From Amphiscolops sp. MND2022 (taxonomy: Eukaryota), in assembly GCA_964187785.1 (NCBI GenBank), contig OZ076409.1, forward strand, positions 16,928,001 to 16,988,000: a DNA stretch of 60,000 nt. The letters are read 5' to 3'. Each line of letters starts with the position of its first letter. Position 1 is the first letter of the stretch. Positions 11,112 to 14,291 of the stretch are shown here, piece by piece. The translations under genes and the position numbers were made by a program. A model generated the notes under the pieces. It worked only from the letters and a program-made list of their open reading frames with translations. It was not told the origin of the DNA and made no database searches.

Positions 11112-12107
11112 ATGTATTCAATTCATAATCGAGATGATTTAGAAAAATTAAAAAAATTGCAAGAAACAAAATCTTCTTTGAAAGCTGAAAGATTAAAAGA
11201 GAAACTAGGGAAGCAAGACTTTCATTATGACATGGAAGAAGTTTTTGAACCTGTTACTGTTATGCAATTGGAAGCTACTTAAAACCAGAAACAATTATCT
11301 GAAAAACAAATACAAGCGCTACGTGATTCTTCTCAAACAGCAGTACAAGCAATAGAAAATCAAACACAGGCTATTTGAGAATCGAATAACGCTTTGAATA
11401 AAAAGTTACAAAAATCTATTGAAGAATATGATGAAATTACTAACCGTAATAATCAACTTATTACTAACTTAGTTAATTCAAACCAAGTTGATTCTAGTAT
11501 CGTTAAGACAGTTTCTAATTTGCTGAATGACAAAAACAAAAGTCAATTTAGTTTAGAACCCATTCATGGGTTAGAACCCATGAATCCAAATTTATTCACA
11601 ATTAATCCTCATAACCCACAACAAGTACTAATTAAAAACAGTACACTAACCTTCTTGGGTAGTGGTAACAAATACAACTTAAATGATCCGGATCTTTCAT
11701 ATTTTATAACTAATGCACAGCTAGACACGCAACCACGAAAGGTGAATCTAATTTATTCTTTCTTGAATGATATGAAATATAATATAAATTATGGAGATAA
11801 AAAATCAAAGAGATATTATTTCATCAAAGATTTAATTAATCAATACATATATCAACATATTCCCTATCAACTATCCCAATTAGGAAGTGGATTTAATCAG
11901 TATGTCTTCCTTCCATCGGATCCTGATGAGCTTGTAGATCAATTAAAACTACTTTAGTTTGAAAAAGTAGGAGGAAATGATAATCCTTTGCTTAGTGAAC
12001 AAATCATAGCAATTGCTGATAAACTTTTACAATACCAATGTATTACAACAAATCAACATCAAAACCTAGTAAGCACATTTACTAAAAAGGATCAGTTTGT
12101 GGATTAA
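11112..12107 (+). pseudogene. Conserved Polinton protein of unknown function, three in-frame stops
   Basis: One frame from ATG 11112 to TAA 12105 with stops at ~11280, ~11376 and 11955. C-terminal GSG...LPSDPDELVDQLKLL..EK.GGN motif is characteristic of Polinton/adintovirus genes. Confidence 0.7.
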
Positions 12108-13083
12108 ATATCTGGTATTGCAGATTGGATTCATTACATATCAAATACTTACTCCCATTTTTATCTTCTAACCTATTTATTAATAAATAATTGTACTTAT
12201 CCCGCCATGCTTCTTTACACAATCTTTTGAAGTCATCATAAGACATATCAAAACCAGCAATTTCTCTATAAATGTGTTCAACATCTTTCAATGTTTGTTG
12301 AAATAAAATTATAATATTACTATTGTTTCTAATTGTTCTTTTAGGTAAATCAAAATATGACTGTGATAAATAATAAACATCCAGATCATTATGTCTTCCC
12401 CTAGTAAAAAATGGATCTATTAATTTCTGTGAAGTGTCCAACATATCATCAAATACAACACAACAATTTTGAAAATCTTGTATTGTTCTATCTTCTAGAT
12501 CTTCGTCCACTGAAATACAGCTTTGCTGGCCTTCGGTATCTTCTATTTCTGTATTTGTATTCCGGAGGGCAGCTTCTCTGTATTGTCCCGGAGATCTAGT
12601 TATTATATGTATTTGTTTTTCTTTATCATATAATCGAATTAATTGTAATTTGTTTAATAACAAATGGGTCTTACCACAAAATGATGGGCCAACTATCAAT
12701 GTCCTATTACAAATATTATGCAAAGCCAGCGTAGCTGTATCAATATTATCATTATTATCATTTGTAATGATATTATTTGTATAATTATTATTATCATGAT
12801 TTTCATTATGATTTATAATTTCATTATTTGTGTAATTATTATTATCATGATTGATAATACATCTTTTTAAATATTTTGATAAATAAATTTTATTGAATTC
12901 CTTATTACAGAATTCACATTTTACTTTTTTATTGAAACATTCTATACATGTACTATACAATTTACCATTTTTATATTTGTAAAAATCTGTTTTCAATATA
13001 TTACATTCTTTACATCTTTTTTTATTCTCACAATCGGAACAGACAGATTTTTCATTACTTTTTCCACAAATTATACACTTCAT
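12082..13083 (-). CDS. A32/FtsK-like packaging ATPase with an N-terminal Cys-rich domain, intact ORF
   Basis: Walker A GPSFCGKT, Walker B VVFDD, FFTRGRH and LSQSYF..P..IRNN; several CxxC pairs at the N-terminus. Confidence 0.9.
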   Translation of the reverse strand: MKCIICGKSNEKSVCSDCENKKRCKECNILKTDFYKYKNGKLYSTCIECFNKKVKCEFCNKEFNKIYLSKYLKRCIINHDNNNYTNNEIINHNENHDNNNYTNNIITNDNNDNIDTATLALHNICNRTLIVGPSFCGKTHLLLNKLQLIRLYDKEKQIHIITRSPGQYREAALRNTNTEIEDTEGQQSCISVDEDLEDRTIQDFQNCCVVFDDMLDTSQKLIDPFFTRGRHNDLDVYYLSQSYFDLPKRTIRNNSNIIILFQQTLKDVEHIYREIAGFDMSYDDFKRLCKEAWRDKYNYLLINRLEDKNGSKYLICNESNLQYQIFNPQTDPF

Positions 13084-13276
13084 TTATTTAGTAAAAAATC
13101 ACTAAATCACTAAGCAAATTCAATAAGAGCATGATGTTTCAAGTGTAACATATTTGCTTAGTGACAAAAAAATGCTCTTAGTGAATTTACTTAGTGATTT
13201 TACTAAGAAAATTACTAAGAAATCAGATCCATTATTTTTAATAATTTATATATTATTTAATTATAATTAGGTATAT

Positions 13277-14291
13277 TTAATTACTTTTACTAAACCTGAT
13301 TGCTTGATCACTTATAATTTTCTTAAATTCATCTTTAAGTTGATCTGAAATTAATGGTTGTTGCATGCGTTCAACGTAGTTGTCTATTTTAGATTCATTC
13401 ACTTTTATTTTATTTTGTTTACAATAATATACATAATAATAAGCTACATTAAAAGGTGTTATTTCAATTGTTTGATCTGACATATCTTCTAGGAATTTTT
13501 TAAGTTTGTTGTACTCTTCACCTGTAAAGAAATAACTTTCATATTTTACATAATCTTCAGGACTCCATTTATGTTTAGTTGTATCGTAGATTAGTTGGTA
13601 CTTTTGATTGAGTATTTTATACTTTTGTGATCTGGTATCAAATTCAATTACACCAAATTCTAACTGGTCACGATATTGTTTCCAATTAAGTTGTTTGATA
13701 CTATAACAACTCATCATTGTTTCGAAAAATGTATCTCGATTATTTATTGTGATATATAACTTAAAACAATTTTCTCTAACAACAGGTAAACAGGTAGAAC
13801 ATCCTTTGCATAATGTGCAAGATAGATAACTTGTATATTATGATGTCTTCCAAACCGGAATAAGTCTTCTACTTTTGTTTTGAGTTGCTTAAAAGCACCC
13901 GCATCATCTAAAATGATTGTTTTACCAGCAAGTGATTCAATGTTAATATTTTCTAACTGCAACAATTGTACAAATCTACCCGGGAATTCGGCTTCATCTC
14001 TACCGAAAACTATAAAATCGCTTTTAGTTTGATCTAAATAATACTTCAGGAAACTAGTCTTAAATGATCCACTAGTACCATACACCAAAAAAGACAATTA
14101 GTATTTGTGATAGGTTTGATTTGTGGCTCGTCTTTTGGTTGATCAGTTAGATGGGACTTTTTAAATCCCTTGAATTGTTTTAGTTTTTGGTATATTTTTT
14201 CGTAATGTCTAGGTCTAATATAATACCAATAAATATATAAAACTATAATAAAAATTACACATAATAAACCTATATAATATTTTTTATTCAT
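13277..14291 (-). pseudogene. Second A32-like ATPase with an N-terminal transmembrane helix (two frameshifts)
   Basis: Three ORF pieces join as MNKKYYIGLLCVIFIIVLYIYWYY (TM), LVYGTSGSFKTS, IILDD, LFRFGRH..IQVIYLAH..KDVLP, VRENC. An 8-bp duplication AACAGGTA at 13781-13796 explains one frameshift. Confidence 0.75.

Follow-up and report, generated by a model that had tools for sequence, protein, structure and literature searches.

A second A32-like ATPase with a predicted membrane anchor in Polinton elements of Amphiscolops sp.

A lineage of Polinton elements (virus-like transposons) with many copies in the genome of Amphiscolops sp. MND2022 carries two adjacent and co-oriented genes for A32-like ATPases, and the product of the second (hereafter ATPase 2) combines the motor domain with a predicted N-terminal membrane anchor in a single chain. 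Judged by its motifs, by profile comparison and by its predicted fold, ATPase 2 is an A32/FtsK-HerA ATPase, the pair is fixed across two subfamilies at the loci examined, and pairwise substitution rates indicate purifying selection on both genes (dN/dS about 0.2). As far as these texts set out Polinton gene sets, one ATPase is described (PMC8097293, PMC8502044, PMC10748475, PMC4028283, PMC11161782; likewise 10.64898/2026.06.19.733378). A literature search lying mostly outside subscription journals turned up no report of a Polinton that has two ATPases or an anchored one; the supplements of 10.64898/2026.06.19.733378 may list such cases.

The window, i.e. the whole stretch of 60,000 nucleotides that was analysed (contig OZ076409.1), contains a whole but decayed Polinton/Maverick copy of 15.2 kb at positions 8730..23931. 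It begins and ends with AGTAGT...ACTACT, has terminal inverted repeats at about 8730-8916 and 23746-23931, and is flanked by a 6-bp target duplication (8724-8729 and 23932-23937), thus displaying all the Maverick end features listed in PMC8097293, namely terminal inverted repeats, (AGT)2//(ACT)2 ends, and a 6-bp target duplication. Pfam identifies in the element both an rve integrase (14306..15118, +; E 1.6e-5, below cut-off) and a double-jelly-roll capsid protein gene (16529..17758, +; DJR-like_dom, 71 bits). From its motif pattern, we take an open 341-aa frame without a Pfam match (9543..10568, +) to be the probable penton (minor capsid protein), and two frames at 17947..21567 (-), where Pfam reports only Endonuclease_7 below cut-off, are presumably a protein-primed DNA polymerase B. 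A frame to which Pfam gave no name is, again from its motifs, presumably the cysteine protease. The window copy is a dead, frameshifted relic, since its integrase and polymerase are broken. Directly before the capsid gene lies a 173-aa frame with two Gly-rich hydrophobic segments (15946-16467, +), likely a membrane protein, with look-alikes in single-ATPase families, and a 135-aa frame with a basic tail and no Pfam family is found near the right terminal repeat (22930-23337, -). Next to the element, at about 25300-40000, a 1.14-kb unit is repeated in tandem about 12 times, most of the copies being 95-99% alike.

The first ATPase gene (12082..13083, -) is intact and codes for 333 aa, with a Cys-rich N-terminus (about aa 1-76), an Asn-rich linker, and a soluble A32-like core that displays a canonical Walker A (GPSFCGKT), a DD Walker B (VVFDD), an arginine finger (GRH) and a Gln sensor (YLSQ). 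An earlier note made from the sequence of the window had described it as a canonical copy with a Cys-rich N-terminus and YLSQ. A Pfam scan of the window protein gave no match to Pox_A32. Three close relatives carry PF04665, the nearest Atlas clusters are Pox_A32 (0.97-0.98) and include arthropod and mollusc entries (0.97), and profile-profile comparison with other Polinton ATPases gives an E-value of 2e-15. On the basis of these motifs and profile similarities, ATPase 1 is an A32-like/FtsK-HerA ATPase. Its core has a dN/dS of 0.16 (pairwise, sister open frames).

The ATPase 2 gene of the window is split into three frames between 14291 and 13277 (-), with breaks near 14,090 and near 13,790. The first piece (14088..14291, -) comprises the start codon, a predicted signal-anchor helix (aa 7-25, about 14217-14273, from hydropathy only), a basic juxtamembrane stretch and a linker; the second (13744..14097, -) carries the Walker A at 14056-14079 followed by IILDD, GRH, and YLAH; the third (13277..13837, -) completes the motor domain and adds a tail of about 105 aa that is specific to the family and predicted to be helical. 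A search of the host genome (1.07 Gb) with the middle piece gave 1444 candidates, and many of the 150 that were scored sit in open frames of 335-341 aa. Eighty loci were retained for comparison: the 30 best matches to the middle piece, 20 picked by ATPase 1 and chosen for their absence from that first list, and the 30 best of a second subfamily (about 63% identity). ATPase 2 frames that are open over at least 325 aa and show the family motifs occur 46 times in these 80 loci, a sample that leans to intact copies because it is made of best matches. In the sister copies, ATPase 2 is a single frame of 335-417 aa containing a hydrophobic helix, a linker, an A32/FtsK-HerA motor and a helical tail.

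The hydrophobic stretch at the start of ATPase 2 spans 19 residues with a Kyte-Doolittle value of 2.4, against a maximum of 1.19 anywhere in eight control ATPases. Taking as criterion a 19-residue stretch of hydropathy >=1.6 before the Walker A, the helix is kept in 45 of the 46 open frames. Because one open frame joins helix and motor in these 45 cases and the controls never exceed 1.19, the two are one gene. The hydrophobic helix of about 20 residues noticed earlier is therefore a family-wide feature, predicted to be an anchor by hydropathy, and no intact copy encodes the transmembrane peptide and the ATPase as separate genes, an outcome that the earlier note had named as fatal to its proposal. 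The query has eight K/R residues after the helix versus two before it, and such an excess is seen in the host genome's own families but fades or is missing in several of the distant relatives; it suggests, more clearly in the host genome's own families, that the motor faces the cytosol or the nucleoplasm. Pairwise dN/dS between natural open frames of ATPase 2 is 0.19-0.21 for the motor and 0.14-0.25 for the tail, in pairs that are not independent and with synonymous sites that saturate between subfamilies. The helix, with few sites, is the least constrained structured part (0.5-0.95).

The motifs GTSGSFKT, IILDD, GRH and YLAH are present in the window ATPase 2 as the earlier note wrote; it took the first for an altered Walker A and the last for His in place of the sensor Gln, and named a regulatory subunit as one of two options. 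A Walker A could be located in 78 of the 80 loci, giving 79 motifs in all. Of these, 70 have the form G[TS]SGSGKT and 74 fit GxxxxGK[TS], while the F variant occurs only once, in the window's own locus, the other eight variants being likewise singletons. The altered Walker A is thus real in this copy but is a private decay and not a trait of the family. Concerning the sensor, which in FtsK-HerA proteins is a polar residue, mostly glutamine, according to the part of PMC11703096 that deals with it, the difference between YLAH and YLSQ is genuine and the His is invariant in the family alignment. However, His also occupies this column in five of six single-ATPase Polinton families of the host genome, and it cannot be the mark of a special subunit because it is so common in sole ATPases. 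In the 24-row alignment of ATPase 2, D129, R149, H150, H160 and R170 are invariant down to 22% identity, so that the DD Walker B, R149 and the sensor His (H160) are all conserved. A pseudo-ATPase or regulatory subunit arising through family-wide loss of catalytic residues is therefore rejected.

A related alternative would have ATPase 2 join ATPase 1 in a mixed ring, as a regulatory or weakly active member that tethers the latter to a membrane. The genes are indeed neighbours with a common orientation and are fixed as a pair: each of the 20 loci selected with ATPase 1 shows ATPase 2 sequence upstream, in one case just the final 80 aa, and in the second subfamily ATPase 1 lies within 1.5 kb downstream of ATPase 2 in 29 of 30 loci. 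Both tandem A32-like ATPases are real. Tandem duplications of about 2-5 kb repeat ATPase genes at loci L032, L037 and L002/L008, and the blocks duplicated at L032 and L037 copy both genes. Nevertheless, we consider a mixed ring improbable: the altered Walker A and the sensor His lend it nothing for the reasons given above, the catalytic motifs are conserved in even the most divergent members aligned, and ATPase 1 comes close (34% and 33% identity) to sole ATPases that serve other host-genome families and need no such partner.

The Pfam Pox_A32 profile matches the ATPase 2 query with 30.2 bits (cut-off 22.8) and all 24 aligned members at E <= 0.01. An AlphaFold model of ATPase 2 has a mean pLDDT of 78, with values above 90 in the motor and of 50-70 in the tail, and its best solved match is the packaging NTPase B204 of STIV2 (Foldseek E 7e-8; Z 15.3 and rmsd 2.7 over 164 aligned residues). 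VirB4, HerA and TcpA come next, and FtsK, HerA, VirB4 and coupling-protein folds lie so close behind B204, at Z 13-14, that the fold does not single out packaging. The viral fold matches are A32-like proteins of 12-19% identity, those of giant viruses (14-16%) being at the top of the viral search. The tail folded alone (pLDDT 58) gave no viral fold match at E <= 0.001, a result that is uninformative on the tail fold, and a sequence search of the PDB returned nothing significant. With A32/FtsK-HerA similarity found by both profile and predicted fold, and with intact single frames in sister copies, the earlier proposal of a membrane-tethered translocase stands as a plausible reading, whereas its other half, the regulatory subunit, has no footing left insofar as it rests on the altered Walker A and on His for Gln.

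ATPase 2 is not a recent copy of its neighbour. The two window ATPases share 29% identity over 48 aa, and ATPase 2 and ATPase 1 in general 19-23%. In motor-domain trees, whose group labels were assigned in this analysis and whose outgroups are long branches, the anchored family forms one clade on a long stem, supported by 98/98 in a tree of 34 rows, from which four members were dropped as redundant or short, and by 97/99 in one of 20 rows. ATPase 1 groups with two sole ATPases of other host-genome families, weakly (83-85), and is not the sister of ATPase 2 in the best trees; a tree in which the two are forced together nevertheless passes the AU test (p-AU 0.36). The description of ATPase 2 as a paralogue is thus doubtful: a recent duplicate is excluded by the low identity and the long separate stem, while an ancient common clade is compatible with the data. 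The two frameshifts and the non-canonical Walker A of the window copy might have pointed to a decaying recent duplicate of ATPase 1 behind a chance hydrophobic frame, but the open frames at sister loci, their low dN/dS, the divergence from ATPase 1 and the separate clade refute this, and we give it virtually no credence. The Atlas clusters near ATPase 2 are viral, commonly Preplasmiviricota (0.94-0.95). Most likely, the gene either was acquired from small capsid-encoding viruses of a different group or goes back to a very old duplication.

A search of the host genome with Pfam Pox_A32 brought up further ATPase families. At least six A32-like families (L113-L132) occur in Polinton-like elements beyond those described here, some at many near-identical places, and one of these element types combines fibre-like with Cys-rich genes, the stretch examined showing no polymerase frame. 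Ten stretches of about 19 kb around other-family ATPase genes, which need not span whole elements, each contain one ATPase, and a second motor is therefore not needed for Polintons in general.

Outside this genome, 320 matches at E <= 0.001 emerged when 1.84 billion representatives were searched with a profile. Among the best 150 of these 320, most are fragments that apparently come from close kin, and about twenty are full-length or long relatives of ATPase 2 with 22-47% identity, mostly on short contigs. Taking one per cluster, the helix is present in 18 of 19 distant relatives, and a canonical Walker A and a DD Walker B in all 19. When the host genome was searched with a relative of 47% identity, all of the 117 scored matches belonged to the known subfamilies; neither ATPase, nor any related alignment used as query, brought up a relative among viral contigs, and phage records gave only weak P-loop matches. 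In two metagenome contigs, a Cys-rich repeat gene lies beside the distant anchored ATPase (L081:323-1261, L082:578-1219), and neither an integrase nor a capsid gene is seen within their 3.3 and 1.3 kb. The resemblance of these Cys-rich genes to the ATPase 1 N-terminus amounts to only 9-11 bits, and similar Cys-rich genes also occur in single-ATPase families; possibly, they represent as a separate gene the zinc-ribbon partner that is fused in proteins of the ATPase 1 type.

What could a second, anchored motor do? From the conservation of an anchored and distantly related second ATPase kept under selection, it is likely that at one stage or another these elements bring their DNA onto a membrane or through it. 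The explanation that we favour, although we would put it at slightly less than an even chance, is that ATPase 2 is an active ring motor with a predicted single anchor that couples element DNA to a membrane during particle assembly. The helix would act as an uncleaved signal-anchor that keeps the motor in the cytosol or nucleoplasm, and the conserved arginine finger would imply that ATPase 2 forms rings. ATPase 1, with its zinc-ribbon-like N-terminus, would be a soluble packaging ATPase of the usual kind, and ATPase 2 the membrane-side motor, one chain doing the job of PRD1 P9 together with the membrane proteins P20/P22. The nearest functioning model is PRD1, in which DNA is pumped at a membrane and the ATPase P9 sits on the membrane conduit P20/P22 (PMC4267777). 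The PRD1 packaging vertex (P9, P6, and P20/P22) and STIV B204 employ the same ATPase superfamily as ATPase 2, but P9 and B204 are soluble proteins that depend on others for their anchoring, whereas the anchor of ATPase 2 is predicted in its own chain. In the literature found, no membrane is described for Polinton particles, apart from nematode Polintons, which the relevant passage of PMC10748475 only suggests to be enveloped.

The genomic context also counts against a role in assembly, as ATPase 2 adjoins not the capsid genes but the integrase, with which it is arranged head-to-head: in 33 of 46 loci, a spacer of 14, 23 or 34 bp separates the two start codons (window 14289-14310; L014, L052 and sisters). 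The 14-bp spacer ends in AATAA before the ATG on both strands, so that the two transcripts must overlap or be 5'-trimmed. A T-rich ...TAA-ATG start context is common to nearly all genes of the element, including the integrase, which excludes a start-codon motif specific to virion genes. The head-to-head arrangement would fit a role at entry or integration, with ATPase 2 anchored in the endosomal or nuclear membrane, pulling the incoming genome across and handing it to the integrase in the manner of a conjugative coupling protein. The order of transmembrane helix, linker and motor is that of VirD4, TrwB and TcpA, and of FtsK as well (PMC11703096), and these folds score Z 10-13 against the model. 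However, the best fold match is a packaging NTPase, and a motor for entry would have to travel inside the particle, so that a membrane is required there too. The two metagenome contigs show no integrase beside the distant anchored ATPase, though they are only 3.3 and 1.3 kb long. A role at entry thus appears unlikely, if worth keeping in mind.

Rather less probable still is an accessory membrane ATPase with a job outside genome transport, such as remodelling or recruiting host membrane or manipulating the host. The family-specific tail, conserved and under selection, would agree with this, as would the other Polinton families of the host genome that manage with one ATPase and the other membrane-active accessory genes of animal Polintons (PMC8502044). 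Yet ATPase 2 retains every motor motif along with the B204-like fold, and the activity of vaccinia A32, the packaging ATPase (PMC11980589), is DNA-stimulated (PMC11703096).

The motor of the favoured explanation has counterparts in several systems. Polinton/Maverick A32-like ATPases (adintovirus, Polintoviricetes) belong to the same element type and share the motif set of Walker A, DD, GRH and polar sensor, but described Polintons lack a second ATPase with an N-terminal helix and a tail. FtsK/SpoIIIE, the coupling proteins TrwB and TcpA, and filamentous-phage gp1/Zot, in which the helix comes after the ATPase, are likewise membrane-anchored FtsK-HerA motors. Anchored motors such as FtsK move DNA at membranes, and PMC11703096, where it treats them, reports helices in FtsK and in filamentous-phage ATPases. 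FtsK is bacterial and has a larger membrane domain and motor, whereas ATPase 2 belongs to a eukaryotic element and combines a single N-terminal helix with a minimal A32-type core. More than one A32-like gene per genome is also known in medusavirus and other giant viruses: medusavirus has three, two of them in virions, but its genome is giant and the passages of PMC6450098 on these proteins mention no membrane anchor.

Polinton particles have not been observed, according to the statements on this point in PMC8097293 and PMC10748475. A conserved anchored A32 motor offers a concrete marker for whether they kept the internal membrane of tectivirus-like ancestors. It is conceivable, although we hold it doubtful, that an undescribed clade of eukaryotic-virus ATPases with the motor fused to its own anchor marks Polintons and related small viruses with a PRD1-like internal membrane, and that the present lineage runs a two-motor system that is part soluble and part membrane-bound. 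ATPase 2 defines an unnamed ATPase family that reaches into metagenomic contigs, and a phylogeny of "the" Polinton ATPase can confuse two genes that are only distantly related though they sit in one element.
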